Shown piece by piece: positions 1,689 to 19,703 of a DNA stretch of 64,000 nucleotides (the stretch's first letter is position 1; every line of letters starts with the position of its first letter). The notes beneath the pieces were generated by a model. That model worked only from the letters and a program-made list of their open reading frames with translations, was not told the origin of the DNA and searched no databases. Location: positions 4,354-68,353 of the forward strand of contig CAZCBG010000008.1 of NCBI GenBank assembly GCA_964496885.1, in the 5' to 3' direction. Source of the DNA: an uncultured Bacteroides sp. Its GTDB lineage: Bacteria > Bacteroidota > Bacteroidia > Bacteroidales > JACABE01. Both the position numbers and the translations under genes were made by a program.

Positions 1689-2725
1689 TGATATCAGAAA
1701 AACTAAATCACTTTTTTAGTTCTATAAAACTGAATAAAAGCAAAAATATCAGCATGGAAAATAGCGAAAACCTTACACCAACTCCTAAAAACGCATTTTT
1801 CGAGATGATCCGCATGAAAAAATCCCATTTTAAAAGAGACGCTCAAGGGTTTATTTATGAAGGATTAACACTTGCCGCTGTTTTAATTATCATTTCTATA
1901 CTAGTTGTAATGCTCGTGGTAATTATCAATGGTGGAAAGTCGATGTTTACCTGGGAATTTCTGACTTCTTTCCCTACCGAAGGGATGACCAAAGGAGGTA
2001 TCTTCCCTGCAATATTTGGGACAGCTATGCTGGTCATCATCATGTCGATTGCAGCAGTTCCCTTTGGTACTATTACAGCCATCTATTTAACTGAATATGC
2101 AAAAGAAAATTCATTCATCGCCCGTAGTATTCGATTTGCTGTAAGAACTTTAGCAGTTATTCCTTCTATCATTTACGGTTTATTTGGATTGGGCTTTTTT
2201 ATCAAATTTGTAGGTACCGAAATGGATACGATCTTTTTAGGAGGTCAACTGAAATGGGGACAACCCAATATTTTCTGGGCCAGTTTAACCATGGCTTTGC
2301 TTACCCTACCAGTTGTAATTGTATCCGTAGAAGAAGCTTTAAAAACCATTCCACGTGAATTGCGTGAAGCCAGTCTGGCGTTGGGAGCTACCAAATGGCA
2401 AACCATTCGCAAAGTTGTATTTCCGGGATCAATTTCAGGTATTATGACGGGTACTATTCTGGCAGTAAGTCGTGGAGCTGGTGAAGTAGCACCTATTTTA
2501 TTTACCGGAGCAGCCTATTATCTGGCAACATTGCCCCACTCCTTAAGCGATCAGTTTATGGTATTGGGTTATCACATTTACATTATGTCCACACAATCGG
2601 CCAACGTAGATCAAACATTACCCATACAGTTCGGGACCACCCTCGTATTGTTAATCCTTACATTTTCACTCAACTTCGTTGCCATCCTATTAAGATACAG
2701 AATCAGAAAAAGACGCATAGCCTAA
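1688..2725 (+). CDS. pstA: Phosphate ABC transporter permease PstA
   Basis: [27 protein letters not shown] and EAA loop [15 protein letters not shown] motifs; start overlaps the pstC stop. Confidence 0.95.
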
Positions 2726-2735
2726 AAAAATTATA

Positions 2736-3494
2736 ATGAAGCATTTAAAAATTCATACAGAAAACATGTATTTGCATTATGGAAGCAAAATGGCATTGAA
2801 CAATGTTTCCATCAGCATACCCGAAAACAAGGTGACCGCATTGATCGGACCCTCGGGTTGTGGAAAATCTACTTTTCTCAGAAGCCTGAACAGAATGAAC
2901 GATCTAATCGATTCTGTAAAGATTGAAGGAAGTGTTTTTATAGATGGCATCAATATCTATGATAAAAATATTGATGTGGTCAACCTACGCAAAAAAGTAG
3001 GCATGGTTTTCCAGAAATCAAACCCTTTTGCCAAATCCATTTTTGAGAATGTCGCCTACGGTCCCCGAATCAATGGCATTAACAATAAAAATGAACTCAC
3101 AGAAATTGTTGAATTATCCTTACAAAATGCAGCCATCTGGGAAGAAGTTAAAGACCGTTTACACGATTCTGCCCTTGGATTATCAGGAGGTCAGCAACAA
3201 CGATTGTGTATTGCTCGTACATTAGCAGTGAACCCTGAAGTTATTTTAATGGACGAACCGGCCAGTGCCCTCGATCCAATCTCTACTTCAAAAATAGAAG
3301 AATTAATTGTTCAATTGAAAGAAAAATACACCATTGTTATTGTAACACACAATATGCAGCAAGCTGCCAGAATCAGTGATGATACTGCATTTTTCTATCT
3401 TGGAGAGTTAATTGAATTCAATAAAACAAAAAAAATATATACCAACCCTGACAAAAAACAAACCGAAGATTATATTTCCGGAAGATTTGGTTAA
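2736..3494 (+). CDS. pstB: Phosphate ABC transporter ATPase PstB
   Basis: Walker [10 protein letters not shown], signature LSGGQQQR, Walker [14 protein letters not shown]-terminal [10 protein letters not shown]. Confidence 0.97.
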
Positions 3495-3496
3495 TT

Positions 3497-4204
3497 TTGT
3501 CGCAACATTATATTAAGATGACAGATATGGAGAAATACAGGATATTCGACAACGAACTCGAAAAACTCAGCGAAAGAGTAGTGAAAATGAGTCATTTGGT
3601 TGAAGAACAAATAAGCAATGCCGTGCTTGCTTTAAATAATTATGATATAGAACTGGCAAAACAAGTTATAGAGAATGACAATAAGGTTGATAAACTGGAT
3701 GTAAAAATTGATAAACTTTGTCAGAAAATTTTCGCCTTGCAACAACCTGTTGCTACTGATTTAAGGTATATTATTTCATCACTTAAAATCAACAATGATC
3801 TGGAACGTATTGGAGACCATGCAGTTAATATTGCCAAACGAATAGATGCATTGAGCGATTATACCAATTTTTCAAAAGAATTCGGTGTGGATGATATTGC
3901 CAACAAAACTGTTTTATTGTACAAAGATGTGGATCAATTGATTAAAACACATAATCTGATACTAGCTACCGATATTTTTCAAAATGCAATCACTATAAAA
4001 GAGCGCTGTCATCAGATTTCCGAAAAAATCATAGAAGAAATGATGCAGCAGAAAGAAGTGATAGTAGTGGCTACCAATATCATGATTATTGTAAATTTAA
4101 TTGAGCGTATAGCCTCCTACTCCACCAATGTTGCAGAATCTATAATTTTCGTTGTGGATGGAAAAATTGTAAAGCATCAGAAAAAAGATGAAGAAATCAA
4201 TTAA
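3497..4204 (+). CDS. phoU: Phosphate signalling/uptake regulator PhoU (likely start is the ATG at 3518)
   Basis: Two PhoU repeats: LQQPVATDLR and DLERIGDHAVNIAK, then LIERIASYSTNVAE. Follows pstB. Confidence 0.95.
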   Translation: MSQHYIKMTDMEKYRIFDNELEKLSERVVKMSHLVEEQISNAVLALNNYDIELAKQVIENDNKVDKLDVKIDKLCQKIFALQQPVATDLRYIISSLKINNDLERIGDHAVNIAKRIDALSDYTNFSKEFGVDDIANKTVLLYKDVDQLIKTHNLILATDIFQNAITIKERCHQISEKIIEEMMQQKEVIVVATNIMIIVNLIERIASYSTNVAESIIFVVDGKIVKHQKKDEEIN

Positions 4205-4331
4205 ATGTATTTTAATGCATTTTTTCATTTATAAAACTTAGCTTTTACTTCTTAATTTAAAAGATTTTACGAATAAATTATTAAATCTAAATAATAATCA
4301 TGCTTACTAAACATTTTAACAAGTTGATAAA

Positions 4332-4799
4332 ATGGGAATTGAAATTGAAAGAAAATTTATTGTAAATATTGATAAATGGAATGAAGTTGTTAAAACTCAA
4401 AATTTTTTTGTCAGACAAGGTTATTTAATGATAAATCATGTTATATCGATTAGAGTCAGGCAAACTGAAGCCAATGGCTATATAACGATAAAAGGTAATA
4501 AAGTCGGTATTACCAGATCTGAATTTGAGTATAGTATTCCTAAAGAAGAAGCTGAACAATTAATTGACAAGTATGCAACTTCAATATTGTCAAAATTCAG
4601 ATATATAATAGAATTTAAAAATAAATTATGGGAAGTTGATGAATTTTTAGAGGATAATTCAGGTTTAATTATTGCAGAAATTGAATTATGCAGTGAAACA
4701 GAACAATTTGAATTACCTGAATGGATTGATAAAGAGGTGACTCATGAAGAGAAGTATTATAATTCAAATCTATCAACCCACCCCTTCACAAATTGGTAA
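4332..4799 (+). CDS. CYTH-domain protein (triphosphate tunnel metalloenzyme)
   Basis: N-terminal EIERKF motif, plus RSEFEYSIP, WEVDEF and IAEIEL. Confidence 0.92.
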   Translation: MGIEIERKFIVNIDKWNEVVKTQNFFVRQGYLMINHVISIRVRQTEANGYITIKGNKVGITRSEFEYSIPKEEAEQLIDKYATSILSKFRYIIEFKNKLWEVDEFLEDNSGLIIAEIELCSETEQFELPEWIDKEVTHEEKYYNSNLSTHPFTNW

Positions 4800-4805
4800 T
4801 TTTAA

Positions 4806-4850
4806 AAAGGAAAAAGTATATTAATAAAAAATTAATATACTTTTTCCTTT
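4806..4850. terminator. 20-bp perfect inverted repeat, probable intrinsic terminator after the CYTH gene
   Basis: aaaggaaaaagtatattaat-aaaaa-attaatatactttttccttt, 7 bp after the stop codon. Confidence 0.7.
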
Positions 4851-4909
4851 ATTATGAATTAATTTTGTAATTCAATCTTTTATTTATTAATCTTTATTAT
4901 TTATTTACT

Positions 4910-5773
4910 ATGGAAGACATTAAAAATTATACCATAAAATTAGACAATAATGCTCAATTAATAGGCTTATTATCTAATAATGTTGAAATCTCAAATAAAG
5001 TAGCCCGATTTCAATCAGCAATTGAAAAATTAAAATCAAAACAAAAAAAAGCAGATGAATTACATTCTTTTTTAATTTTGGATATATCAACAATTGAAAA
5101 GGATAAGAATAAAAAAAGAATTGAATTAGAAAAAACGCTCTTGCCCTTAATAAGAATAATGCAGGTTTTTGCCTTTGATAAAAAGAAAAAAAATCTACAA
5201 AAAAAATTGGAGTATTTAACTTTAGATTATATTCAAAAATGCTCAGATATTGAATTGATAAAAATCGTAAAAAAAATCTGGCTATTAGCTGACAAAAATG
5301 CTGGATATTCACTTATATTTAATAGTAAAGGTAAATCAACCCTGAATACTGATTCGATAAAAAAAATAAACAAATTTGAAAAGGAATATGGTTTAAATCC
5401 TGCCTTGATTAAAAATATTGAAAAAACAAATTTAAAATTTATTGAATCAAAGTTTGTATATCAGAGTGAAATCAAAGAAAAAGGTAAAGCTGCCAAGAAA
5501 ATTAAAAATCTTTTAAAGCAGACAGAAGATTTATTTAAAAATACAATTGACCAGTTTGTAAAAATGTTTGAGAGTGATTATCCTGACTTTTACAAAGATT
5601 ATCATTTATTACGAGCAAATAAACCTAAAAGTAAAATAAAAGAAACCCCTGAGAAAAAACCAATTCGACAGGTAAGACCTAATAAAGAAAATAAAAATAC
5701 CCTGAAAGATATAGAACAAACGAATGAATCAACTCAAAAACCAAAAGCTACAAAAACAAATAAAGTAGTGTAA
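4910..5773 (+). CDS. Hypothetical helical protein with a Lys-rich C-terminal tail
   Basis: 287-aa ORF with a TAATTTTG -7 element at 4860-4867. The pattern (EYGL...; D.FV..F...YPDFY..Y...R) resembles an uncharacterised Bacteroidota family. Confidence 0.75.
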   Translation: MEDIKNYTIKLDNNAQLIGLLSNNVEISNKVARFQSAIEKLKSKQKKADELHSFLILDISTIEKDKNKKRIELEKTLLPLIRIMQVFAFDKKKKNLQKKLEYLTLDYIQKCSDIELIKIVKKIWLLADKNAGYSLIFNSKGKSTLNTDSIKKINKFEKEYGLNPALIKNIEKTNLKFIESKFVYQSEIKEKGKAAKKIKNLLKQTEDLFKNTIDQFVKMFESDYPDFYKDYHLLRANKPKSKIKETPEKKPIRQVRPNKENKNTLKDIEQTNESTQKPKATKTNKVV

Positions 5774-5832
5774 TATCAATATTAGATAAATTTAATCATA
5801 TCTTTTTTTACATCATTAAGTATATTATTTCA

Positions 5833-6660
5833 ATGAAAGACTGTAATGTAGTTAATATTTTTAAGCCTATTAGTTTTCTAAATTTGCTTGAAACAGATAT
5901 TGAAAACCTTTATACTTATTCTAACGATACTTCTTCTGAATTGGATAAGTCTATCCATGAAATACGAAAATCATTAAAATCTATTTCAGCTATTTTATCA
6001 ATTTATAAAGTACATTTTGAAAAAACACAATATTTAAGTTGGGTAGCTTATATTAAGGATATTTCAAAACTTTATGCTTCTTTAAGAGATCCTTATATTT
6101 ATCGTAAAACATATTATAAATTTGAAAAAGAACTAAATAAGAAATCTTTTGCACTTTCATTTGAATTAAAAAATCATCTTGAATTAAGGTATGCTCTAAC
6201 TGTTAAAGAATTAATTAATAAAAAAGATATTTTAATTCAGGGAAATTCTGCAATAATTAATATGATTGATACATTTAATAAATCTTTCATCTATTCTGAT
6301 ATTAAATTACTGAATAAGAGTGTTCTGAATACATTTAAAAAGTCAAAAAAATTATATTTAAAATTAAGTCTGTCTTCCACTTCTGAAGATTTTCATAAGT
6401 TTAGAACTTGTTGTAAAGATAATTATTTACAACAATCAGTACTTATACTTAATAAATTGAGAAATCCATCTAATCATATTAAGAGCCTTTATAAATTAAC
6501 TGAATACTTAGGGCAAGAGCATGATTTGCAACTATTTAAAGATTATTTAAAAATGCATTTTCCTGAATTGTCAAAATTATCGAATTCTTTTTTTAATTTA
6601 AGAATAAAAAAGTTAAGAATAAAAATAATGAAACTTTTTCCCAATATTAAATACAAATAA
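5833..6660 (+). CDS. CHAD-domain protein (polyphosphate-binding type)
   Basis: IHEIRKSLK, LRD and FHKFRTCCKD...LGQEHDL motifs typical of CHAD; near the CYTH and pst genes. Confidence 0.85.
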   Translation: MKDCNVVNIFKPISFLNLLETDIENLYTYSNDTSSELDKSIHEIRKSLKSISAILSIYKVHFEKTQYLSWVAYIKDISKLYASLRDPYIYRKTYYKFEKELNKKSFALSFELKNHLELRYALTVKELINKKDILIQGNSAIINMIDTFNKSFIYSDIKLLNKSVLNTFKKSKKLYLKLSLSSTSEDFHKFRTCCKDNYLQQSVLILNKLRNPSNHIKSLYKLTEYLGQEHDLQLFKDYLKMHFPELSKLSNSFFNLRIKKLRIKIMKLFPNIKYK

Positions 6661-7744: not shown

Positions 7745-8226
7745 AAAAAACAAATTCCCTTTAATTACAAAACCAGCTTAAGTTATTAATCCACACACAT
7801 AATTTACATTCCCATGTAAATAAGTAAGAATTACATTTATATATTTAATTTACCCTTAAAAGGCAAAACCAATCCTGCTTTTAATTTTCAAAATAATTAC
7901 CCCCGTCTTTACAAAATTTAATAGTGCTTGCAAAGAGATTTAAACCATTTAATAAGTGCTATTATAATAGCTTTGTCAGATTATCAACTGAATAAAAAGT
8001 CGTGATTCCTCATTTAAATTTCTAATTTACTTCACCCAATTTTAGTCTTACCGCAAATATAATATTTCATACTTCAATTTTGCTCCCTTTACATTTCGTT
8101 TTGCCAACAGCTTATTATTGTAGTAAAATGCAATAGAAGCATTCTAATTATCGCCACCCGTTAACTAATTTGATAGGCTGCAATATTAGGACACACAGCA
8201 TACATATTTATAATAACTTAATATAG

Positions 8227-8304
8227 TTAACATAAAATCAAACAAAAATTAAAGTAATAGTGAAATAATGTTAACACATTTTAGTTTTCTTTCAACTTAT
8301 TTTG
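8227..8304 (+). promoter_or_regulatory. Candidate Pho-box-like array plus variant -7 element upstream of the triple phosphatase
   Basis: ttaacat (8227), tcaaaca (8238), ttaaagt (8249), gtgaaat (8260), ttaacac (8271); TTATTTTG at 8297, 26 bp after the last repeat start. Confidence 0.6.
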
Positions 8305-8479
8305 CATAAAAAGTTTTAACAAATTTTATGAATATGAGAAAAAAATGAAACTAGAAAATTTAGAAATAAACAGCAAATATTTCTTAAATAAAAAAGGAAT
8401 TAAATGCAATAAAAGCAATTATTCCATGGCATATAATCCATGTTATTTAAAAAATGGTCTTTTACCATAAAATATCTAT

Positions 8480-11400
8480 TTGGATAAAAATATTGATACT
8501 TTAATAAATACTATTGAAATTATTAAAAAAATGAAAAGAAAAAAATACTTTTTAGATTATTTTCCTAAGAACTTCAGGAAAAAGTTTTTTAACACCCTGC
8601 TATTGGGGATTTGTATGCTTGGGTTTATGAGCAAAACCGAAGCTCAGATACAATTTGTTTATACATCTGACGCGCATTATGGTATTACCAGAGCCCGTTT
8701 TCAGAAAGCTGCCAATGTAAGTGCAACTGTTGTTAATGGAGCAATGATTGCTAAAATGAACAATCTTACTCAATTGACATTCCCTAATGATGGTGGAGTT
8801 AGATCAGGTTATAAAGTTGACAGTGTTGATTTTGTTGTAATGACCGGCGATATAGCCAATCGTTCTGAAACTACTATTATTCCAACCCTGAGTGCTTCTA
8901 CTTGTTGGTCGCAATTTGCCAATGATTACATTAATGGAACTACATTAAAAGATAAAACGGGTAGCAATTCAAAACTTTATTTATTACCTGGAAATCATGA
9001 TGTTTCCAATGCTATCGGGTTTTACAAAACGATGTCTCCTTTAAAGGATAGTGCTACTATGGTTAACATTTATAATATGATGATGCCAAGTCCACGGGCT
9101 GCAGGTAATTACAACTATGCTAATGAAAAAATTCATTATTCAAAAAATATTGGTGGCATTCATATGATGTTTGTTTGTATGTGGCCAGACTCTACAGAAC
9201 GTGTTTGGATGGCAAACGATTTAGCTACTGTTAGTTCTACAACTCCGGTATTTATTTTTACGCATGATCAGCCTTTAGTAGAATCAAAACATTTAAGCAA
9301 CCCAAATTCACCTTATACAATAAATAGTACTAATAAATTTGAAAATTTATTGTTAGAAAAATTTAAAGATGGAACTGCAATAACTGCTCCTTCCACTATT
9401 GAACAAAATGGCTTTGCAAGTTTTGTACAAGCACACCCTAACATTGTTGCGTATTTTCATGGTAATGATAATCAAAACAATTATTATAAATACTATGGAC
9501 CCAATAATAATATTGCTATAGATATTATTCAGGTTGATTCTCCAATGAAAGGGAATATATCTGCAACAGATGAAACCAAATTATCTTTCCAGTTAATTAC
9601 CATCGATACTTTATTAAAAGTGATGACCGTTCGCGAATGTCTTTATAATACAGATACCAATAATGTATATTCACCTATTATTTTTGGGAGTTCAAAAACC
9701 ATAAATTTTGATGTTGCTAACTATGCTCAAAATACCAGCACAGCCGGCACAAAGATATGCTCAGCAACTGATTTACATTTAATGCATCCATCATTATTAG
9801 TGAATGACGGAGTTGCTTTCCAAACTTATCTTGCAAGCGATAGAAAACTTATAAAAGAAAGTAATGCTATTATGCAGGAACTTAAAAACAGAATTTACGA
9901 AGAAAGACCTGAAATTTTCTTAGTTCCAGGAGATCTTACTAAAGATGGTGAAAAAATAAGTCACCAATTAATGGCTACTTATCTTGATTCTATTGAAATG
10001 AACGGAGTAACTAAAGTATATGTTATTCCCGGAAATCATGATGTGAATAACGTTAGTGCTTACAGTTATGATGGAAGTAATGTTACTAAAGTAGATTCAG
10101 TTTCTCCTTCTGATTTTAAAACTATATACAATAATTTTGGTTATGGCGAAGCTGTTAAAACAGATACTGTTTCTCTTTCCTATCTTGCAAAACCTAAATC
10201 TAAAACCTGGGTTTTAGGAATAGATGTTTTAGAATACGATTTAAATATGGCGGCCGGATATCCTATCACAGAAGGCAAATTTAAACCTTCTACTTATAAA
10301 TGGGTTCTCGACCGATTAAAAGAAGCAAAAGATTCAAGTGCTGTTGTTTTAGGTATGATGCATCCTGGACTTACCGAACATTATACCGGACAAAGTGTAT
10401 CTTTCCCCGAATATGTTGTTTTAGGTTGGGATACTATTTCAAAAAACTTTGCAAAAGCAGGATTAAAAATGATGTTTACAGGACATTTTCATGCAAATGA
10501 TATAACCAAAAAATCTAATCCAGGAAATTCTTCTTTTGTTTATGATATTGAAACAGGCTCAACGGTAACATGGCCTTGTCCTTACAGAGTTATGGATCTT
10601 AAAGGAGATAGTATATTAAATGTAGTTACCAACCGTATTCAGAATATTAATTACAATACCAATGGCATGACATTCCAGAATTATGCCTTGAATTATTTAA
10701 ATACTGGTATGACTGGTATTATAAATTATCAGTTAACTCATCCACCTTATTCTTTGGATGCAGGTACAGCAGCTGCTGTTACACCTCATGTTGTAAGTGC
10801 CTTTACAGCCCATTATGCGGGTGATGAAACAATACCTGCCTCTGAACAGGGATTTATCAGCTATTTAAATTCAGTTGGACAATTTTCACTTGCTTCTTCT
10901 TTAACTAATATGTGGACAGATTTAACCCCAAGTGATAATCTTGTTGCTTTGCCATTAAAGAGTTCAATTGATACTATTAATACTATTATTAATAATTTAA
11001 TTCAATCTGACTATACTGTACCAAGCTGGACTCTTTTCTTAAGAGCTAAAACAGCAATGGTTGCTAATCAGGATTCTGCAAGTATTGCTAATATGTATTC
11101 TGTGATTGCAAAAATGAAATCTTCATCTATGCCATACAATATAGTAATGAATATTAATAAAGATCCTAAAACCAAGATGGCTTTCAACTGGTTTACCAAT
11201 GCTGGTGTAACTGGCGGACAAGTTCAGATAGTAACTGGAAATACAAATGATACTTTAGCATTTAATACTCCATTAATGGTTGTAAGTGCTAGATGTGATT
11301 CAGCTAAAAATCTTAATTATAGCAATAGTGCAAATGGGTTATTACCATTAACCGGTATTGCTGATAATTCTAAAAAAACTTATATGTTTAACAAAGCTTT

Positions 11401-13942
11401 AGTAAATGGTTTAACTCCAAACACACAATACTCTTTCAGAGTTGGTAAAAACGGAGCTTGGAGTACTATTGGATCTTTCAAAACTGCAAAAACTACCAAA
11501 GATGCTTTCTCTTTTGTTTATTTTACCGATCCACAAGCAAACACTGATGCCATGTTTAATGTTTCTCAAATTACCACTCATGCTGCTCAGACCATGTATC
11601 CAAATGCTAACTTCTGGTTAAGCTGTGGTGATTTGGTGGAATCCTCAGGTTCGGCAAATTCAGAATGGGAATATGAACAATTTTTCGAGACACAACAGGA
11701 TATTTTCATGAAGAATCCTTTTGCTCCTATTGAAGGAAACCATGACATTACTACAAATAAAAACTTTACCTACCATTTTAACACTGATTCTGTTGCTTTT
11801 GATTATGCAAAAGCAACAACACCCGGTAGCGTTTATTCATATGTTTATGGTGATGCTTTATTTATGCACTTGACTTACGAAAATTACAGTACAACAGGTT
11901 ATCTTGATTCATTGGCTAACTGGATGAATACCCAGGTAAAAGCTAATCCAACTACAAAATGGAGAATAGCCGTTTATCATAAAACAATGTATACAGGAAG
12001 CCAAAGTCATCAAAGTGATTCAGATGGTAAAACAGTTCGTTTGAAAATGGGACCTGTTTTCGATAGTTTAAAAGTAGATTTAGCTTTCCAGGGACATGAT
12101 CATGTTTATGAAATAATTGGACCTGTAAAAAATGTTTCATTAATACCTAATGCTGTTTCTAATCAAACTATAGTTACTGCAACGGTACGTGATAATGTTA
12201 CCGGATTACTAGGTGGTACTTTTGATGTAAAACAAGGAACATTATTTTTCTTAAACAATTCAGCTGGAAAGAAAAAATATGAACCACGTTCTTTAGCTCA
12301 AATGAATGCAGCTTATTCTGCAACACAAGTTCCAAATTATTTTGGAATGTTTACAGGTAGATTTGGTCAAACAGGCGAACCTACTTTCAGTAATGTTACT
12401 ATTAGTACTGATTCAATCAATATTTCTACTTATACTGTTGATAGTGTAGGAAATTCAACTATTTTTGATTCGTACAAAATTGTTAAAACTGATCAAGATA
12501 ATACATGGAATGGTTCTGCTGATAACAATTGGAACAAAGCTTCAAACTGGTCAGAAGGATTAATACCTACCCAGAATCAGAATGTGATAATACCTACTAA
12601 CGTTCCTAATTTCCCGACCGTTAGTTCTCCAGCTATCATTAACAATCTGACTGTTCAATCCAATTCAACTGCAACTGCCTCATTGTTGGATAATGGCCTT
12701 TTAACTTTAAATGGTAATGCTAGCATTAAATGTTACTTAAGTGGAAACAAATGGCATATGATTTCAATTCCAGTTCAATCAGCTACTTCAAGTGTATTTA
12801 ACTTAGGAGCCGGACAAGCTGATATTTATGCTAAAGGATACAGCAATGGTAACTGGGATAGTTTGATAACAAATCCAACTACTCCGCTTGTACTTAATAA
12901 AGGTTATGCTGTTTGGGCTGATACCCTAACTAATTCTACACCAAATCCAACATTAACTTTTACCGGAACTTTCAATACAGGAATCCAAACGCTACCTACC
13001 GAAACTGGCTGGAACCTGATCGGGAATCCTTTTATTTCTGCTATTGACTGGAATACGCTGAATTTAACCAATGTCAATGGTCAGGCTGTTAGAGTTTGGA
13101 ATCATGATTTACAACTTTATTCAACTTATAGCGCAATTGGTGGAGGTGTAGATGGTGGTAATCAATATTTATCTCCAATGCAGGCTTTCTTTGTTAAAGG
13201 ATTGAATACTGATGGTATAGCAATTTCTCATCCAAACAGAATTCATAATCCTCAACCTTTAATGAAAAGTGCTAACTCAACTATCAGTAATTTATTAAAA
13301 ATAAAAGCTCAGAGAAGTACTTATACTGATGAGATTAATGTTGTCTACAATACCATTGCAACGAATGGATATGATCCATTGTATGATGCCAATAAATTAT
13401 TTGTAACGGATAATAACATTCCTCAGGTATATTCATTAGCTAATAACAATGAATTAGCTATCAATGTATTTGGAAGTTTACCTGCAGCTATTCCTATGAA
13501 CATCAAATTAGGCGTTCCAGGAATTGTTAGTTTGACAGCTTCTGAAACAAATAGTTTTGATGCAAATATTTCAATTAAATTAGAAGATATTTTAAGTGGA
13601 ACTATTCAGGATTTACGCCAAAACCCTGTTTACGCTTTTAGTGCTTCGGCAAATGAAAATGCAAATAGATTCATTTTACATTTTGCATTGGCTCCAAATA
13701 GTATAAATGAAGCACCAATCAACAATACAAGTATTTATGCTTTCGATAAAACTATTTATGTAAATTCTAATGATAAAGTTAAAGAAATCAGTATTTATAA
13801 TATGCTTGGCCAGTTAATAACTTCAAAAATATGCAATGGCAGTGCCTTTAACTCAATTTCAATAAATAAAGCTTCAGCATTTTATATGGTTAGAGTTATT
13901 ACTGACAAAACTACTTACTCTGAAAAAGTATTTATAAAATAA
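8480..13942 (+). CDS. T9SS-secreted multidomain phosphoesterase: three calcineurin-like metallophosphoesterase domains (third is purple-acid-phosphatase type with FN3), a beta-rich stalk and a T9SS CTD (likely start is the ATG at 8531)
   Basis: Three motif sets: SDAHYG/GDIAN/GNHD/THDQ/FHGND; TDLHL/GDLT/GNHD/MHPG/GHFH; TDPQ/GDLVE/GNHD/YHKT/GHDH. Signal peptide ends TEA-Q. C-terminus YNMLGQL...KVFIK. Confidence 0.9.
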   Translation: MDKNIDTLINTIEIIKKMKRKKYFLDYFPKNFRKKFFNTLLLGICMLGFMSKTEAQIQFVYTSDAHYGITRARFQKAANVSATVVNGAMIAKMNNLTQLTFPNDGGVRSGYKVDSVDFVVMTGDIANRSETTIIPTLSASTCWSQFANDYINGTTLKDKTGSNSKLYLLPGNHDVSNAIGFYKTMSPLKDSATMVNIYNMMMPSPRAAGNYNYANEKIHYSKNIGGIHMMFVCMWPDSTERVWMANDLATVSSTTPVFIFTHDQPLVESKHLSNPNSPYTINSTNKFENLLLEKFKDGTAITAPSTIEQNGFASFVQAHPNIVAYFHGNDNQNNYYKYYGPNNNIAIDIIQVDSPMKGNISATDETKLSFQLITIDTLLKVMTVRECLYNTDTNNVYSPIIFGSSKTINFDVANYAQNTSTAGTKICSATDLHLMHPSLLVNDGVAFQTYLASDRKLIKESNAIMQELKNRIYEERPEIFLVPGDLTKDGEKISHQLMATYLDSIEMNGVTKVYVIPGNHDVNNVSAYSYDGSNVTKVDSVSPSDFKTIYNNFGYGEAVKTDTVSLSYLAKPKSKTWVLGIDVLEYDLNMAAGYPITEGKFKPSTYKWVLDRLKEAKDSSAVVLGMMHPGLTEHYTGQSVSFPEYVVLGWDTISKNFAKAGLKMMFTGHFHANDITKKSNPGNSSFVYDIETGSTVTWPCPYRVMDLKGDSILNVVTNRIQNINYNTNGMTFQNYALNYLNTGMTGIINYQLTHPPYSLDAGTAAAVTPHVVSAFTAHYAGDETIPASEQGFISYLNSVGQFSLASSLTNMWTDLTPSDNLVALPLKSSIDTINTIINNLIQSDYTVPSWTLFLRAKTAMVANQDSASIANMYSVIAKMKSSSMPYNIVMNINKDPKTKMAFNWFTNAGVTGGQVQIVTGNTNDTLAFNTPLMVVSARCDSAKNLNYSNSANGLLPLTGIADNSKKTYMFNKALVNGLTPNTQYSFRVGKNGAWSTIGSFKTAKTTKDAFSFVYFTDPQANTDAMFNVSQITTHAAQTMYPNANFWLSCGDLVESSGSANSEWEYEQFFETQQDIFMKNPFAPIEGNHDITTNKNFTYHFNTDSVAFDYAKATTPGSVYSYVYGDALFMHLTYENYSTTGYLDSLANWMNTQVKANPTTKWRIAVYHKTMYTGSQSHQSDSDGKTVRLKMGPVFDSLKVDLAFQGHDHVYEIIGPVKNVSLIPNAVSNQTIVTATVRDNVTGLLGGTFDVKQGTLFFLNNSAGKKKYEPRSLAQMNAAYSATQVPNYFGMFTGRFGQTGEPTFSNVTISTDSINISTYTVDSVGNSTIFDSYKIVKTDQDNTWNGSADNNWNKASNWSEGLIPTQNQNVIIPTNVPNFPTVSSPAIINNLTVQSNSTATASLLDNGLLTLNGNASIKCYLSGNKWHMISIPVQSATSSVFNLGAGQADIYAKGYSNGNWDSLITNPTTPLVLNKGYAVWADTLTNSTPNPTLTFTGTFNTGIQTLPTETGWNLIGNPFISAIDWNTLNLTNVNGQAVRVWNHDLQLYSTYSAIGGGVDGGNQYLSPMQAFFVKGLNTDGIAISHPNRIHNPQPLMKSANSTISNLLKIKAQRSTYTDEINVVYNTIATNGYDPLYDANKLFVTDNNIPQVYSLANNNELAINVFGSLPAAIPMNIKLGVPGIVSLTASETNSFDANISIKLEDILSGTIQDLRQNPVYAFSASANENANRFILHFALAPNSINEAPINNTSIYAFDKTIYVNSNDKVKEISIYNMLGQLITSKICNGSAFNSISINKASAFYMVRVITDKTTYSEKVFIK

Positions 13943-13978
13943 ACTAAATTTTATTAATTTTAAAATATATATATTAAC

Positions 13979-14200
13979 ATGAAAAATTCAATCAAAAAAA
14001 TTATCATACTTTTTTTTCTCTTAGCTGCCCCTGTTGTTATGAGCAATGTAATTGCTGATAACCCACAAAGTCCGGGTGGAAATCCATCAGGAGGAGTTCC
14101 CATTGATGGAGGAGCAAGTATAGTAATTGCTGCCAGCGCAATATATGGTGCCAGAAAAGCCCGTAAAGCATTGAAAACTAAAAAAGATGAAATTAATTAA
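13979..14200 (+). CDS. Small signal-peptide + PIDGG-TM-basic protein (PID-CTERM-like sorting-domain protein), copy 1
   Basis: Signal peptide (..VIA), then DNPQSPGGNPSGGV, then PIDGG, a hydrophobic helix and RKARK. 69/73 aa identical to the 26715 copy, with synonymous codon differences. Confidence 0.85.
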   Translation: MKNSIKKIIILFFLLAAPVVMSNVIADNPQSPGGNPSGGVPIDGGASIVIAASAIYGARKARKALKTKKDEIN

Positions 14201-14222
14201 TTAATCATTTCTTATACAATTC

Positions 14223-14259
14223 AAAGAGGCTGAATTCTTTCATAGATTCAGCCTCTTTT
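14223..14259 (+). terminator. Intrinsic terminator
   Basis: aaagaggctgaat-tctttcatag-attcagcctcttt(t), a 13-bp stem. Confidence 0.8.
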
Positions 14260-14403
14260 AATTTTATGTAATCAAAAAAAGCATTAAAAACTTTAATAAG
14301 TAGTGTATATTCTTTCGATGATGATCCTTGTTCTTTCAAAAGCTAATAATATATAATTAAATCATTTTTAAAAATTTATTCAGTTTCTCAATATTATTTA
14401 AGC

Positions 14404-14470
14404 TTAATATTTATATAATCATATCATAACATTAAATTAATCTGTTTTTAATTTACAATAATGAAATTTG
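14404..14470 (+). promoter_or_regulatory. Candidate Pho-box-like array plus variant -7 element upstream of the TBDR operon
   Basis: ttaatat (14404), ataatca (14415), ataacat (14426), ttaatct (14437), ttaattt (14448); GAAATTTG at 14463, 26 bp after 14437. Confidence 0.55.
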
Positions 14471-14540
14471 CAAAAAATAATATAGCATTACTTTAATTTA
14501 TTTAAAATTTACCTTATCAATATTAACTAAGAAAATTCAA

Positions 14541-15323
14541 ATGAAATATAATTTCATTATTTTAATATTATTATTTATAAATTTCAATTTGTTAGCTCAG
14601 AACAAAGAAAATAATTATATAATTACGCATAATGACAGTTTAGCATTGGAAAATATTATAGTTGAAAAATATTATATTGCCGATTCAACTGACTATCTGG
14701 ATTCAACCAAAAATTCTCTTCCTCTTGGTTCTGTAACTTACAGAATCTTTGTTGATATGAAACCTGCTTATAAACTACTATCTGTATTTGGAAGTCTAAA
14801 ACATGAATTATTTTTTTATTCAACCGAAAAATTTTTTAATGATTTGGAAGCTGATGCTATTACAGGTTTTAATATTAATATAAAAAATATCAGTAAAGCA
14901 AATATTGCATTGGATTCATGGATTACATTAGGCGCAGCTGCCAGAGGATTTACAGGCATCCCAAGAAATGAAGATACTATGGGATTAAAATTAATATACA
15001 ATAGGCCTTCCTTATATAAAGCCGGAGGATTTACAAAAGCAATTTTACCTGATTTTAAGCACTTCAACCTCGATTTCAGTGTTTTTGAAAAAGACACTAA
15101 CCAAGGAAGATTTTACACAAACAATGGAGCTTGGGCTGCACCTGGTGGTGTTAAAGGTCCCACACCTGATAATAAAGTTCTGATAGCTCAGATTACTACA
15201 AATGGTAAATTGAGTTTTAAACTGAATGTTCAAATTGGAACACCAAGTGGTGGATTTGTAATTTTCGTAGCTGATAAGCCCGAAGAAAATGAAATTGAAT
15301 TCAACAAATTGATTTTAAAATAA
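14541..15323 (+). CDS. Secreted protein consisting only of the unassigned VEKYY/TYRI/DSW/AQITT domain (paralogue 1)
   Basis: Signal peptide (LLA-Q); IVEKYYI, GSVTYRIFVDMKP, LDSWITLGAA, VLIAQITTNG, LNVQIGTP; no T9SS CTD. Confidence 0.85.
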   Translation: MKYNFIILILLFINFNLLAQNKENNYIITHNDSLALENIIVEKYYIADSTDYLDSTKNSLPLGSVTYRIFVDMKPAYKLLSVFGSLKHELFFYSTEKFFNDLEADAITGFNINIKNISKANIALDSWITLGAAARGFTGIPRNEDTMGLKLIYNRPSLYKAGGFTKAILPDFKHFNLDFSVFEKDTNQGRFYTNNGAWAAPGGVKGPTPDNKVLIAQITTNGKLSFKLNVQIGTPSGGFVIFVADKPEENEIEFNKLILK

Positions 15324-15350
15324 ATATATTAACCTTTAAATTATTACATT

Positions 15351-16448
15351 GTGAACAAAATTTATACAAATTTCTTATTCATAAGTCTGACATTTTTTGT
15401 AACTTTTTATAGTTATGCTCAGCATGGTCTCGATTCAGTCATAGTTGAAAAATATTATATTTCAAATTCAGCAGATTCAATTAAAAGTATTGGAATATTA
15501 CCTGCTAAATCTGTAACCTATAGAATATTTGTTGATATGAAACCTGGTTATAAATTTCAATCATCTTATGGAAGTGTGAATCATCCTCTTTTGATAACAA
15601 CAACTACTTCTTTTTTCAACAATGAAGATTATGGTTCAATATCTCCTGTATATACAAAAACACAAGCAAAGAAAAATACTGTTATGCTTGATTCCTGGCT
15701 ATCAGTAGGATCTGCATGTGTAGGTAATTTTGGCATTCTAAAATCAAGAGATAATGGTGTTGCTAATGTTATAAACGCAGATACAATTTTACAAAACAAT
15801 GATACTGCTGCAGGTATTCCTTTAACACAACAGGATGGCTTAATTAGCGGTAGTACGGGTACTTTTGGAGCCATTGGGATTGATAATGCTATAGCAGTTT
15901 TTGATGCAAGCAGTCAATTCGGAAATTCTTTTGTAGTTACCAATGGAGCATGGTATTGTTTAGCTGGTGCTATAGGTCCTGATACGAATAATCAGGTACT
16001 CATAGCCCAAATTACTACCAATGGCAGATTAAGGTTTAAACTAAATCTTCAATTAGGCACACCTACAGGAGGTACAGAAAATTATGTAGCTGAAAATCCA
16101 ATTGATTCGACTGAACACCAACGAGGTTATTTAACCTATGTTTCAGACACGAATATTAATATTATTGTTAATACGAATGATTTCAAAGAAAAAGAAAACT
16201 ACATCTCTGTTTTCCCCAATCCATCCAATGGTATTTATACGTTGAATGTATATTCTGTTGGTTTGAATTCTGAAAATTATTATTCCATCTATTCTATAAT
16301 GGGAAATTTAATTCTCAAGAAAAAAATGAACACTTTTATAGATGCTAAATCTGAAACCATCGATATAACATCAGTTCCTAAAGGTGTCTATTTTATTGAA
16401 ATTAATTTGAATGGGGTTTCATCTACAAAAAAAATAATTAAAAATTAA
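15351..16448 (+). CDS. T9SS cargo with the unassigned domain (paralogue 2)
   Basis: Same motifs as paralogue 1. C-terminal SVFPNPSNG...YSIMGNLI...KGVYFIEI...KKIIKN is a type A CTD. Confidence 0.88.
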   Translation: MNKIYTNFLFISLTFFVTFYSYAQHGLDSVIVEKYYISNSADSIKSIGILPAKSVTYRIFVDMKPGYKFQSSYGSVNHPLLITTTTSFFNNEDYGSISPVYTKTQAKKNTVMLDSWLSVGSACVGNFGILKSRDNGVANVINADTILQNNDTAAGIPLTQQDGLISGSTGTFGAIGIDNAIAVFDASSQFGNSFVVTNGAWYCLAGAIGPDTNNQVLIAQITTNGRLRFKLNLQLGTPTGGTENYVAENPIDSTEHQRGYLTYVSDTNINIIVNTNDFKEKENYISVFPNPSNGIYTLNVYSVGLNSENYYSIYSIMGNLILKKKMNTFIDAKSETIDITSVPKGVYFIEINLNGVSSTKKIIKN

Positions 16449-16481
16449 TTTTTTTCATCATTTAGTTTAATAACATTTCTT

Positions 16482-19400
16482 TTGTCCATATTCAGAACCT
16501 CTTTAGATCATAAATTTGAATATTTTATGAAATCATTCTTATTTCTTATTTCTATTATTTTTTTAATTTCTACAAATATATTTTCACAATGTATCATCAG
16601 AGGTAAGGTAACAGACTCAAAAGGTGAAACAATAGTTGGTGCATCTGTTTATCCAAAATCAAAAATGAATTTAGGTGTAGCTACCGACTTAAACGGTGAA
16701 TTTTCAATAAATTTACCTGAATCAGAAAAAGAAATTATAATCGTAAGATATATAAGTTATCAATCCATAGAAGACACTATAAAATACAAAAAAGGTATTA
16801 TTATAAAAAATTATGTTTTGGAAACTGTAACCAAAGCATTAAATGAAGTTGTTATCACTGCTAAAGCTTATAAAAATAATGATGCTCAGCTGGAAAAATT
16901 GAAAATGATTTCAATTTCTACAATTGATTATATTTCTGCTGAAACTATTAAAAAAACCGGTGATGCCAATGTAGCTTCAGCTGTTTCGCGTATTACCGGG
17001 GTTTCAACAACTAGCAGCGGATTGATTACAGTGCGCGGTGTAGGAGACCGATATGTAAAAACAACAATAAACGGAGCCCGAATACCCACCTTAGATCCTT
17101 TTACAAATAATATTAAATTAGATTTTATTCCTTCAAGTCTTGTCGATAATATTATCTTGTCAAAAACTTCCAGGCCCGATTTACCCGGAGACTGGGCAGG
17201 TGCTTTTATTTCAATTGAAACTAAAGATTATCCTGATACCCTTTCTTTATTTACAGAAACATCTTTTGGTTACAATTCCCAATCAACATTTAAAGATGTT
17301 CTTACTTCTCAAACAAGTTCAACCGACTGGCTTGGCTTTGATAATGGATTTCGTGACTTTGATCATAGTAATTATATTCAATTTAATAATACGCCTACAA
17401 AATATCAGGAATTTGCTGCCTTAGGTTTAGGCAATTTTTTTCAGTCGCTAGGCATAAATGCTAGCACACCCTGGAATGATACTTATTTTAAATTGGGATT
17501 AATTCAATTAGGATTATTAGGCAATGCACAAATAAATGATCCTCTAGCATTTCAAAATGCTACGAATATATATAATTCATTAGCTTATAAGGGAAAAGCT
17601 TTTAATATTATTAATTCAACTGCTGTTGAATCAGAGAAAAAACTTCCAAATAACTGGAATACAACAACTAAAAAAGCACCTATAAGTTTAAGTCAGAGTT
17701 TTTCAATTGGAAATCAAACAAAATTATTTGGGAAAACACTTGGTTATATAATTGGTTTGAGGTATTCAAGTTCTGTTCAATATGATCCGAATACGATTAA
17801 AAATGATTTTTCATTTCAATTTAACAATTTTAATTTACTTGATACGAATAGAAGTACATTTTCAAAATATCAGTTCATCAGCAAAGAGACAAACAGCTGG
17901 AGTGGTTTAATAAAATTAGCTTTAAAACTAAATAATAACAATAATTTTTCTTTCCTTTTTATGCCCAACATAATAGGAACAAATAATGTAAGAGATGCTG
18001 AATATGTTGAACCGGCTTCAAATGATCCAACGAATAACCCTCCAACTATAAATTATTCCAAATATCAATTTTATGAATCAAGGAAACAATTTATTTACCA
18101 GTTAAAAACCGAGCATTTTATTCCATCTAGAAAAATAAAAATTGATTTCAATGCTTCTTACACCAATGGGAAAAGCAATGCACCTGATTCAAAAATTTAT
18201 GAAAAGAAATTTGTAGATTCAAATGTTCCGAATGATTATTCAATCTATTTTACTTTTCCTGCTGTTAATATTAGTGATAAAAATAAACCTATCCGGTATT
18301 TTCGATTACTCACCGATAATGTTTTAAATGCACAGATTTCAGCAGAAATGCCTATTGACAAAAATCCTGATTTAATTCGAAAAATTAAAATTGGCAGCGA
18401 ATTTATTTATAATTATTTAGAAAATGAAAGCAATGTATATCAGTTTGTAAATGGTAACGGTTTTATTGATCCTACAGTTCAAACTTTACAAAAACTAAAT
18501 CCAGACTCTATTTTTAATATTGTAACTATTAATAATGGAGGAAATTTGCAACGATCAGTATATGGATTTTATGAGAAATACAGTAGGCCTATCGATGATT
18601 TTTTTGGGTACAGTACTATTTTCGCCTCTTATGCAATGGCAGATTATACGATAAGTCCAAAAATGAGAGCATCTGGTGGCCTCAGAATTGAAAAAGCTAA
18701 TATATATACAGATTGTAAGTTTTTTGATGAATTAGGTATAGTTGCCAATGATAATAGAAGAAAAATTGTAGATGTAAGAGGTACACAAATGGATGTTGAA
18801 CCCGGAGTATTGGATAAAGTATCTTTTTTGCCAAGTGTGAATTTTATTTTAAAATTAAAAAACACCGAATCATCTCTAATTAATTTAAGACTAAATTACA
18901 GCCAATCCGTTGCCCGTCCTAGTATCAGAGAACTTTCTGAAACTTCATTTTATGATTTTGAAACAAATTCTTATGTAAAAGGCAATGCTCAACTTAAAAT
19001 GGTAAAAATTAATAATCTTGACGCAAGAATAGAATATTATTTTAAATCGGGTGATAATATTTCAGCCAGTTTGTTTTATAAAGGCTTTGAAAATCATATT
19101 GAATTATCGAGTTGGGGATATGTATTATCTTGGATCAATAATCCGAATTATACAAATTTATATGGATTGGAACTGGAAGGTAAGAAAAATATAACTAAAC
19201 ACCTAGAATTTAAAGCAAATCTATCTTTAATATATTCTCAATCTGTATTAAATGGTGGAATATTATATGATTTAATGGGTCATATTTTCTTTTTAAAAGG
19301 TGGAAAAAGACCTATGTTTGGACAGGCACCTTACGTTTTAAACACTATGTTAACATATAATTTCCCTAAATATGGAATATCAACAACCTTAAGTTATAAC

Positions 19401-19703
19401 GTTCAAGGCAGTAAATTAGTAATAGTTACCGATCCAACAAAACCTGATATCTACGAGTTACCTAGACATTTGGTTGATTTTAAAATATCGAAAAAAATTG
19501 GGAATCATTTTAGTTTAAGTTTAAAAGTACTTGATATTTTTAATAATCCTGTTACAAGAGCTTATGTAAATGTAAATACAGATAATTATTTCAAAAATAT
19601 TTGGGATGATATCACCAATAAAAAACCGCTTGAAAACAATTTCATCTATAATAAATACAAATATGGAACAAATTACATTCTTTCATTTTCTTATAAAATT
19701 TAA
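16482..19703 (+). CDS. TonB-dependent receptor with N-terminal carboxypeptidase-like extension (likely start is the ATG at 16527)
   Basis: NTE IRGKVTD..GETIVGA; plug ITVRGVGDRY...LDFIPSSLVDNIILSK; C-terminal beta-strand ending YILSFSYKI. Confidence 0.92.
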   Translation: MSIFRTSLDHKFEYFMKSFLFLISIIFLISTNIFSQCIIRGKVTDSKGETIVGASVYPKSKMNLGVATDLNGEFSINLPESEKEIIIVRYISYQSIEDTIKYKKGIIIKNYVLETVTKALNEVVITAKAYKNNDAQLEKLKMISISTIDYISAETIKKTGDANVASAVSRITGVSTTSSGLITVRGVGDRYVKTTINGARIPTLDPFTNNIKLDFIPSSLVDNIILSKTSRPDLPGDWAGAFISIETKDYPDTLSLFTETSFGYNSQSTFKDVLTSQTSSTDWLGFDNGFRDFDHSNYIQFNNTPTKYQEFAALGLGNFFQSLGINASTPWNDTYFKLGLIQLGLLGNAQINDPLAFQNATNIYNSLAYKGKAFNIINSTAVESEKKLPNNWNTTTKKAPISLSQSFSIGNQTKLFGKTLGYIIGLRYSSSVQYDPNTIKNDFSFQFNNFNLLDTNRSTFSKYQFISKETNSWSGLIKLALKLNNNNNFSFLFMPNIIGTNNVRDAEYVEPASNDPTNNPPTINYSKYQFYESRKQFIYQLKTEHFIPSRKIKIDFNASYTNGKSNAPDSKIYEKKFVDSNVPNDYSIYFTFPAVNISDKNKPIRYFRLLTDNVLNAQISAEMPIDKNPDLIRKIKIGSEFIYNYLENESNVYQFVNGNGFIDPTVQTLQKLNPDSIFNIVTINNGGNLQRSVYGFYEKYSRPIDDFFGYSTIFASYAMADYTISPKMRASGGLRIEKANIYTDCKFFDELGIVANDNRRKIVDVRGTQMDVEPGVLDKVSFLPSVNFILKLKNTESSLINLRLNYSQSVARPSIRELSETSFYDFETNSYVKGNAQLKMVKINNLDARIEYYFKSGDNISASLFYKGFENHIELSSWGYVLSWINNPNYTNLYGLELEGKKNITKHLEFKANLSLIYSQSVLNGGILYDLMGHIFFLKGGKRPMFGQAPYVLNTMLTYNFPKYGISTTLSYNVQGSKLVIVTDPTKPDIYELPRHLVDFKISKKIGNHFSLSLKVLDIFNNPVTRAYVNVNTDNYFKNIWDDITNKKPLENNFIYNKYKYGTNYILSFSYKI

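Follow-up and report, generated by a model that had tools for sequence, protein, structure and literature searches.

A putative type IX-secreted protein with three distinct phosphoesterase modules on one stalk, from an uncultured lake Bacteroidales

The window considered here, by which we mean the whole 64,000-nucleotide stretch of DNA that was analysed, comes from an uncultured lake member of the Bacteroidales and carries a long open reading frame at positions 8480 to 13942. We confirm that this frame encodes a real protein, probably located at the cell surface, in which three distinct phosphoesterase domains stand on one secretion stalk. The protein appears to belong to a so far undescribed family from uncultured freshwater bacteria, the modules of which occur in many combinations. 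Our preferred reading, to which we give a probability of about 0.55, is that it is a tri-catalytic phosphoesterase exported by way of type IX secretion (T9SS) and probably held at the surface, in which diesterase-type feeder modules and a finisher resembling the purple acid phosphatases (PAPs) would free orthophosphate from organic phosphorus under conditions of scarcity. Within this reading, we infer the substrates, the order of the reactions, the retention at the surface and the control by phosphate starvation.

The reading frame and its catalytic modules

The 1820 codons form a single frame with no internal stops, which is closed upstream by an in-frame TAA at 8468-8470. We label its parts A, B, L, C, X and T; they occupy aa 56-410, 425-835, 836-884, 885-1335, 1341-1750 and 1751-1820, respectively, and the features are as follows.

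8480 to 13942, forward strand: 1820-aa open reading frame, with a start TTG at 8480 and a likelier real start at ATG 8531
8531 to 8644, forward strand: putative signal peptide MKRKKYF...GFMSKTEA/Q, with a basic n-region, a hydrophobic core and a TEA-Q site, and with N-terminal homology to the L001/L012 orthologues
8645 to 9709, forward strand: module A, a metallophosphoesterase of a rare, uncharacterised subfamily (Pfam 27.4 bits; AlphaFold 2 fold)
9752 to 10984, forward strand: module B, an Lmo2642-like phosphodiesterase with a C-terminal helical extension (PDB 2XMO, E = 6e-46)
10985 to 11131, forward strand: leader L, about 50 aa, with DYTVPSWTLF, conserved ahead of PAP-like modules
11132 to 12484, forward strand: module C, a PAP-like monoesterase with an FN3-like N-domain and a catalytic domain (PF16656 53 bits, PF00149 42 bits)
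12500 to 13729, forward strand: module X, an all-beta stalk with homology to the part of RemA and RemZ that precedes their C-terminal domain (CTD)
13730 to 13942, forward strand: module T, a type A T9SS C-terminal sorting domain with the stop codon (TIGR04183)

The original prediction had placed three mutually different calcineurin-like domains in this frame, the third with a PAP-type N-domain, and both statements hold. The metallophosphoesterase domains lie at nt 8645-9709, 9752-10984 and 11132-12484, and each exceeds the Pfam cut-off by itself, with PF00149 scores of 27.4, 39.8 and 42.4 bits for the separately scanned regions A, B and C (cut-off 21.5). Scanned as a whole, the protein gives three separate Metallophos stretches, Pur_ac_phosph_N and a weak Por_Secre_tail, while the same Pfam scan of the 1820-aa protein returned no match to the 5'-nucleotidase C-terminal domain (PF02872). 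The motifs to which the prediction had drawn attention are likewise all there: FHGND at aa 326-330, MHPG at aa 627-630 and DYTVPSWTLF at aa 845-854 (nt ~11012).

A frame of this kind could also arise as an assembly chimera that fuses separate phosphatase genes, an outcome that had itself been suggested as a refutation. In favour of such an error, the source genome is a fragmented metagenome-assembled genome (MAG) of 228 contigs, and the stalk module belongs to a multi-copy family. Against it stands an independent contig, L002, which is a SPAdes node of coverage 43 from a separate ENA sample and corresponds to MAG ELA489 (L021). This contig aligns collinearly with window positions 7929-13340, without gaps and with 25 mismatches (99.54% identity), and the match covers all domain junctions, from 550 nt upstream of the reading frame to 840 nt inside the stalk. 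The order A-B-L-C-X-T is also found in L001/L024 (MAG ELA429) and L012/L023 (MAG Umea3p4_bin-1352), with 77-88% amino-acid identity per module and ~81% nucleotide identity between these two lineages, and a fourth lineage, L022 (Deming_bin.89), shows A-B at a contig end. There are thus three further lineages, at ~80% nucleotide identity, that bear out the order, and the paralogues of the stalk, being at most 71% identical, are too divergent for mis-joining. A chimeric origin is effectively excluded.

The true start of the protein is likely to be ATG 8531 (MKRKKYF...), which would give a normal signal peptide with cleavage after TEA (aa 55); both start and signal peptide were assigned by eye from the sequence. 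In the orthologues L001 and L012, a conserved start ATG stands straight after a conserved TTTTAAC[CA]AAATTTTAT box. The counterpart ATG in the window, at 8334, meets a stop after four codons, and a second in-frame ATG at 8345 opens a frame of 41 codons that is ended by the TAA at 8468. The start of the reading frame in the window (8480 or 8531) now lies ~190 nt downstream of the orthologue-type ATG, and the region 8334-8479 may encode a leader peptide, belong to a long 5' untranslated region or reflect a remodelled start.

Module A is the least familiar of the three. A search of PDB sequences with a module A profile found nothing beyond a 40-residue patch of likeness to PAPs, and an NCBIfam scan gave no match for module A, nor for modules C and X. 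An AlphaFold 2 model built from a 16-sequence alignment has a metallophosphoesterase fold (pTM 0.82, mean pLDDT 75), to which the closest solved folds are SMPDL3A and SMPDL3B (Foldseek E = 1e-8, TM ~0.5-0.57, 12-13% identity), followed by Lmo2642 and Mre11. The family is small: against 1.84 billion cluster representatives the profile found only 411 members, 155 of them at E <= 1e-30, and many of the 411 are stand-alone proteins of ~400 aa. Among one-per-species genomes it occurs in lake, peat and soil MAGs and in a few cultured Chitinophagaceae, spread over Bacteroidota, Ignavibacteria, Verrucomicrobia, Acidobacteria, Myxococcota and other phyla, and it is present in 9 of the 301 genomes of the window organism's own order. 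Two cultured strains, Parasediminibacterium paludis CECT 8010 and Chitinophaga niastensis DSM 24859, have stand-alone homologues at 52-55% identity (L042, L051).

The canonical motifs DAH, GD, GNHD and H262 are all present in module A, placing the ligands at D64, H66, D124, N172/H173 and H262. Both histidines of motif V are missing, and in place of GHxH the module reads F-H327-G-N329-D-N331. The original prediction had pointed to FHGND as a departure that might alter metal ligation or leave the domain inactive. A variant motif V is indeed what is found there, yet it is no private defect of this protein: the whole query clade has G-N-x-N, with a histidine one residue before the glycine. Over 55 divergent members of the family the pattern at this site is F-[H/S]-G-[H/N]-x-[N/H], distant members having G-H-x-N and, rarely, G-H-x-H. 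Where position 329 is not histidine, position 327 is histidine in 29 of 29 cases, as against 18 of 27 where 329 is histidine (Fisher p = 6e-4), and in the 26 close copies H327 and N329 are each conserved to at least 96%. Departure from GHxH has a precedent in E. coli UshA, where Gln replaces the last His of the motif. We read the change in module A as a putative relocation of a metal ligand rather than as decay, because positions 327 and 329 covary, because H327 and N329 are conserved, and because the ratio of non-synonymous to synonymous substitution rates (dN/dS) resembles that of modules B and C, as given below.

Module B has a much closer known relative. It matches Lmo2642 (PDB 2XMO) at E = 6e-46 over 275 residues, with query residues 427-703 aligned to residues 45-314 of the chain, and all five of its motifs are canonical (DLH, GD, GNHD, H628 and GHFH). 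The ligands D431, H433, D485, N519, H628, H669 and H671 are invariant in 15 copies, with H520 beside N519. As to the MHPG that had been singled out where MHHG is expected, the substitution is real, but the ligand H628 is kept and only its neighbour is changed: P629 adjoins the motif IV ligand and takes the place of the second histidine of the HH pair, which is present in Lmo2642 and in 93% of module B copies. The closest orthologues have H, P or Q at 629, but all of them keep H628. According to PMC4320098, the canonical superfamily signature calls for just one histidine at motif IV; the same paper cites Kim et al. (2011) for the description of Lmo2642 as a cyclic-nucleotide phosphodiesterase. 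Other identities were tried for module B and rejected, namely an anti-phage phosphoesterase (DS9/DS8; NF053862, 35-46 bits), which falls far under the cut-off of 420 bits, and PdeM and SbcD, to which the matches are weak and far under their cut-offs.

In module C, Pur_ac_phosph_N (PF16656) is found at aa 885-1002 with 53 bits against a cut-off of 30, and the module matches plant PAPs and PAP phytases in PDB at E = 2e-7 to 1e-5, with low identity. Aligned to kidney bean PAP, with the alignment anchored at NSEWE/NVRWD, it holds six of the seven PAP ligands (D1017, D1051, N1087, H1167, H1206 and H1208), in the motifs TDPQ (motif I), GD, GNHD, H1167 and GHDH. The seventh, the Fe(III)-binding tyrosine of GDxxY, is E1054 in module C (GDLVE), and this position is Glu in 97% of the 61 copies; the PAP consensus to which GDLVE corresponds is GDLSY. 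Module C is thus PAP-like, yet it cannot be 'purple', the tyrosine of GDxxY being a glutamate.

Leader L, immediately before module C, contains the segment in which the original prediction had seen a FIVAR-like linker (PF07554) of Firmicutes surface proteins. We find no basis for that likeness, no Pfam family matching aa 701-887 at E <= 0.5. Leader L is found before the PAP-like module in most relatives irrespective of what stands upstream, and therefore appears to behave as part of module C and not as a borrowed linker.

Could one of the modules nevertheless be a pseudo-enzyme, with A (through G-N-D-N) or B (through P629) being non-catalytic and serving for substrate binding or as a spacer? 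The loss of both motif V histidines from module A and the His-to-Pro change beside the motif IV ligand of module B speak for this. However, the remaining ligand positions are invariant or nearly so in the family, with conservation over 26 copies of A, 15 of B and 61 of C; the constant presence of H327 wherever 329 is not histidine looks like relocation of the ligand; and the free variation at 629 in close orthologues is set against a H628 that never changes. In three pairwise comparisons, in which dS is high and the values are approximate, dN/dS is 0.12 for A, 0.12 for B and 0.10-0.13 for C. Modules A and B thus equal module C in this respect, and purifying selection that seems equally strong on all three argues against a dead domain. 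We consider a pseudo-enzyme improbable.

Stalk cassette and shuffled family

The original proposal of a T9SS cargo carried on a stalk is supported. Module T matches TIGR04183 of NCBIfam with 31 bits against a cut-off of 23, while PF18962 reaches 19-22 bits, under its cut-off of 27; and the stalk is homologous to the ~545 C-terminal residues of RemA. A profile of X and T together (positions 2-482) aligns to residues 892-1436 of RemA (8GL6_D) at E = 5e-58 and to residues 578-1111 of RemZ at E = 5e-45, and also matches part of Mfa5 and the CTDs of gingipains and NucA. The AlphaFold 2 model of X and T is all-beta (pLDDT 79). Experiments have shown that the SprA translocon takes both RemA and RemZ as type A substrates (PMC10994853), and the genome of the window organism has a T9SS translocon gene, an open frame of 2418 aa with SprA_N (PF14349) at 571 bits.

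The stalk and sorting domain form a cassette that is used repeatedly. There are 17 full X+T cassettes in the genome on unrelated cargos, one of which is the window open reading frame at 24116-26683; within the window, the pair of cassette copies is 12500-13942 and 25382-26077. To orthologues with the same catalytic part, X and T are only 33-38% identical, whereas identity to the other-cargo proteins P0005, P0006 and P0048 is 66-80% for X and 53-71% for T. For the cassette, the figures are ~34% to orthologues and 74-80% to non-orthologues. It has thus been swapped between orthologous phosphatase genes. A dN/dS value for the stalk was discarded as meaningless, the cassette being non-orthologous between the compared genes.

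The catalytic part is shuffled as well. Among 5.8 billion proteins, a word-indexed search restricted to those of 1001-3185 aa gave 63 homologues with catalytic modules; 54 of them combine two or more such modules, and in 21 there are three or more different types. In the module orders that follow, L, X, T and the N domain of a neighbouring gene, described below, are omitted from the labels, and P denotes a PHP-like module of ~500 aa that is present in relatives and absent from the window. The orders found are P-C in 19 proteins, P-A-C in nine, P-B-C and C-C in four each, A-B-C and A-C in three each (the A-C set including P0017, which also has the neighbour's N domain) and B-A-C in two. A-P occurs in two proteins, of which P0059 has the N domain, and A-A-C-C, B-A-P-C and B-A-C-P are single cases, alongside A-B and others. 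The exact order A-B-C is limited to four lineages. Of 47 mixed fusions, 46 have the PAP-like module as their final catalytic unit, and the modules also occur as stand-alone proteins.

Construction by domain shuffling, which the original prediction had put forward, is strongly supported by this range of orders (A-B-C, B-A-C, P-B-C, P-A-C, A-A-C-C and others) and by the exchange of the stalk between orthologues. A search for the same three-domain architecture had also been proposed, and triple phosphatases prove not to be unique within the group; in the literature searched, no report of the multi-phosphatase family was found.

Three more distant homologues combine the modules with other phosphatases. 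In P0066, module A is fused with an alkaline phosphatase of PhoA type (PF00245); in P0064 and P0065, module B is fused with a 5'-nucleotidase (PF02872), a domain seen only in these distant relatives of module B. By their domain assignments, all three naturally combine a diesterase and a monoesterase.

The PAP-like module is most often partnered by P, which starts with GDFHQH(S/T)TYTDGS, a PHP-type HxH...DG signature, for example in P0008, P0011, P0016 and P0021. No Pfam family matches P, and its match to CehA/McbA, with 52.7 bits, is below the threshold of 80. It has the look of a secreted phosphoesterase of PHP type that has yet to be described.

Neighbouring genes and promoter

The surroundings of the phosphatase gene bear on its possible role in phosphate acquisition, and the features concerned are as follows.

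414 to 6660, forward strand: pstC, pstA, pstB, phoU, CYTH, an unknown open reading frame and CHAD (Pfam)
8217 to 8276, forward strand: three perfect [CG]TTAAYA heptamers (at 8217, 8226 and 8270), a candidate Pho-box-like element
13979 to 14200, forward strand: gene for a 73-aa PID-CTERM micro-protein with an exosortase signal (NF046080, 34.9 bits against a cut-off of 26)
14223 to 14258, forward strand: intrinsic terminator ending the two-gene unit, with a 14-pair stem and a T tail, the sole terminator-like site in 13900-14600
14541 to 19703, forward strand: downstream cassette of two 'N-domain' proteins and a TonB-dependent receptor (open reading frame list, Pfam)

The phosphatase gene lies 3.8 kb downstream of pstC-pstA-pstB-phoU-CYTH-CHAD on the same strand, with two small secreted proteins after the CHAD gene. 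Directly before the window, on the same contig, stand pstS and a reading frame that resembles a phosphate porin, an assignment made from its sequence alone. The PID-CTERM gene begins 36 nt past the phosphatase gene with no terminator between them, and from this position the two are predicted to be co-transcribed. In other genomes, stand-alone module A genes are found ~4 kb from pstB-phoU. As to other phosphatases, the genome has one of PhoA type; PhoD and PhoX were searched for in it and not found.

The two N-domain proteins (14541-16448) are paralogous, and their N domain of ~230 aa has no match in the NCBIfam scan. In other genomes this domain and module A form one protein, with the N domain on the N-terminal side (P0017, P0059; L025-L027), and genes of the form N-A-L-C adjoin the same receptor cassette. 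A Rosetta-stone fusion of this kind ties the TonB-receptor cassette to the phosphatases.

The promoter of the phosphatase gene has three perfect [CG]TTAAYA heptamers, where dinucleotide shuffles would lead one to expect 0.27 (P = 0.0015). Their 9-bp and 44-bp spacings are kept in the orthologous promoters of L001 and L012 (P = 0.02 and 0.0005), although the first site in L001, ATTAACA, matches at 6 of 7 positions. The porin-pstS promoter (L020; contig C8, 2243-2282, ~2.1 kb before the window) has four copies of the same heptamer, as CTTAAYA, at an exact spacing of 11 bp, followed by a TAnnTTTG-like box. It is the single best array of four 11-bp repeats in the 3.7-Mb genome, and for this Bacteroidales lineage we regard it as a good Pho-box candidate.

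In wider scans, the exact word GTTAACA is not enriched across the window (8 found, 11 expected), a scan for four repeats at 11 bp found only the pst promoter, and in-phase pairs of perfect heptamers, at 7 genome-wide against ~3 expected, are no more frequent than chance. When 8-bp microsatellites are excluded, the 3.7 Mb hold only three non-tandem clusters of at least three heptamers, including the phosphatase promoter; the third cluster (contig C48) is near an integrase-like gene and was set aside as looking unrelated. The microsatellites are tandem arrays of the 8-bp unit CTTAATAA, which contain the heptamer, at C149:3588-3618, C85:9020-9050, C45:7847-7885, C205:1807-1829 and C165:1114-1159. 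Since the word, array and pair scans gave no wider signal, the regulatory argument rests on local enrichment and conserved geometry, and it hints at co-regulation with pst, as a lead only.

The same neighbourhood bears on whether the protein might have a non-nutritional role, degrading extracellular nucleotide signals or matrix DNA, or acting in defence. Secreted esterases of the CpdB/CdnP type degrade cyclic dinucleotides in pathogens. Two further observations would fit such a role, the weak matches of module B to anti-phage models (NF053862) and the link of a T9SS-secreted metallophosphoesterase to virulence in Riemerella (PMC12398890). Those matches, however, are far below the cut-off, the window organism and all its relatives are free-living, known from lake, peat and sediment MAGs, and the neighbouring genes serve phosphate transport and polyphosphate. 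We think a non-nutritional role very improbable.

Proposed function and known systems

The mechanism that we propose is a two-step one. The protein would be exported by the T9SS and probably held at the surface on its RemA-type beta stalk. Modules A and B, of which A is a remote structural relative of the acid-sphingomyelinase-like phosphodiesterases, would act as feeders of the diesterase or pyrophosphatase type, turning diesters or anhydrides (for example nucleotides, whether cyclic or linear, and their derivatives) into monoesters. Module C, which is closest to the anchor, would act as the monoesterase finisher, and the freed phosphate would enter the cell via the adjacent porin and PstSCAB. 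The protein itself would have been built by recombination of self-contained modules at conserved junctions, namely the L leader and the DNTWNG stalk junction. We hold feeders plus finisher to be the best single model because the pairing of a diesterase with a terminal PAP-like module recurs, and because YfkN of Bacillus subtilis provides a precedent.

The main rival is that the modules act uncoupled on unrelated substrates (nucleotides, phospholipid head groups, phytate), like the blades of a Swiss-army knife, and are fused only for joint export, in fixed stoichiometry, with a single signal peptide, stalk and CTD serving all three. It is consistent with the occurrence of nearly any module combination and copy number, including A-A-C-C, C-C, A-P and P-C, with the existence of every module as a stand-alone protein, and with the reuse of the stalk cassette by 17 unrelated cargos in the genome. 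It does not lead one to expect the PAP-like module to come last in 46 of 47 mixed fusions, nor the pairings of diesterase with monoesterase (B with 5'-nucleotidase, A with alkaline phosphatase), and the sequential breakdown of nucleotides has its precedent in YfkN. We regard the uncoupled arrangement as a possibility to be taken seriously, if a doubtful one.

A bolder form of the coupled, two-step mechanism would be a combinatorial 'surface phosphatasome', in which cassettes A, B, PHP-like and PAP-like are swapped at the junctions, feeders lie distally with the Glu-type finisher by the stalk, and proximity channels the intermediates. Were this so, module A would represent a new metal-site geometry, with the motif V histidine moved by two positions, and the module order would reflect channelling from diester through monoester to phosphate at the cell surface. 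We offer it as a speculative extension that is rather unlikely to hold in full.

Several points weigh against the feeders-plus-finisher mechanism. Module A lacks both canonical histidines of GHxH and resembles nothing characterised, so its chemistry is a guess, and module C is missing the PAP tyrosine. The homologue set is biased towards proteins of 1001-3185 aa, and the last place of the PAP-like module could mirror a history of N-terminal accretion and not function. Many type A T9SS cargos are released to the medium and not retained at the surface. On the regulatory side, the heptamers ahead of the phosphatase gene are 9 and 44 bp apart and not in the 11-bp tandem of the pst type, a Pho box is undefined for the lineage, and one other heptamer cluster stands at an unrelated locus.

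In lakes and peat, where Bacteroidota are key degraders, much of the phosphorus supply comes as dissolved organic phosphorus, a major source, yet the phosphatases of Bacteroidota are known chiefly from a few cultured Flavobacterium strains. The locus described here adds an uncultured lake Bacteroidales with multi-catalytic phosphoesterases, of predicted surface display, assembled from interchangeable modules. For enzymology it offers as targets the rare module A, in which the motif V histidine is relocated, a Glu-type PAP-like enzyme, and natural permutations of modules with which coupling through fusion order could be studied. Such experiments are feasible because stand-alone module A genes exist in the cultured Chitinophaga niastensis and Parasediminibacterium paludis.

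Multi-domain secreted phosphoesterases such as YfkN, T9SS/TonB systems that respond to phosphate depletion, and a single T9SS metallophosphoesterase are already known. In the literature searched we found no report of a shuffled multi-phosphatase family on RemA-type stalks, nor of a module A with a relocated histidine or of a Glu-type PAP-like module. The nearest precedent is YfkN, a Pho-regulated, secreted, natural fusion of CpdB-like and UshA-like parts that acts as a trifunctional nucleotide phosphoesterase (PMC8475336). Like the present protein, YfkN is very large and secreted and fuses different calcineurin-type domains; its hydrolysis of nucleotides, diester and then monoester, and its place in a phosphate-starvation regulon are features that are only proposed here. 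It differs in having two catalytic modules, each with PF02872, in a Gram-positive organism, whereas the window protein has three modules of other subfamilies, no PF02872 and a T9SS/RemA-type cassette.

The individual modules have their own counterparts. Lmo2642 of Listeria monocytogenes (2XMO) aligns with module B at all metal-ligand motifs, but it is a single-domain protein of 443 residues with HH at motif IV, where module B has HP. The PAPs (kidney bean, 1KBP/4DHL; wheat PAP phytase, 6GIT) share with module C PF16656 and the GD, GNHD, VxxH-type and GHDH motifs in PAP order; in the PAPs the tyrosine of GDxxY ligates Fe(III) and gives the purple colour, whereas module C has Glu at that position and TDPQ as motif I. 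SMPDL3A and SMPDL3B are the nearest solved folds to module A, but at 12-13% identity there is no match at the sequence level, and motif V of module A is G-N-D-N.

The whole architecture, finally, may be set beside other T9SS cargos. The gliding adhesins RemA and RemZ of Flavobacterium johnsoniae have ~480 C-terminal residues (stalk and CTD) that are homologous to those of the present protein, but their N-terminal cargo is a lectin, where here it consists of enzymes. In F. johnsoniae, phosphate depletion induces T9SS-tagged proteins, TonB-dependent transporters and phosphatases (Lidbury et al. 2020, PMC8115612), and Riemerella secretes through the T9SS a single-domain metallophosphoesterase with acid phosphatase activity (Niu et al. 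2021). The proteins of the F. johnsoniae phosphate regulon and of Riemerella are single-domain, whereas the protein described here is a fusion of several phosphatases.

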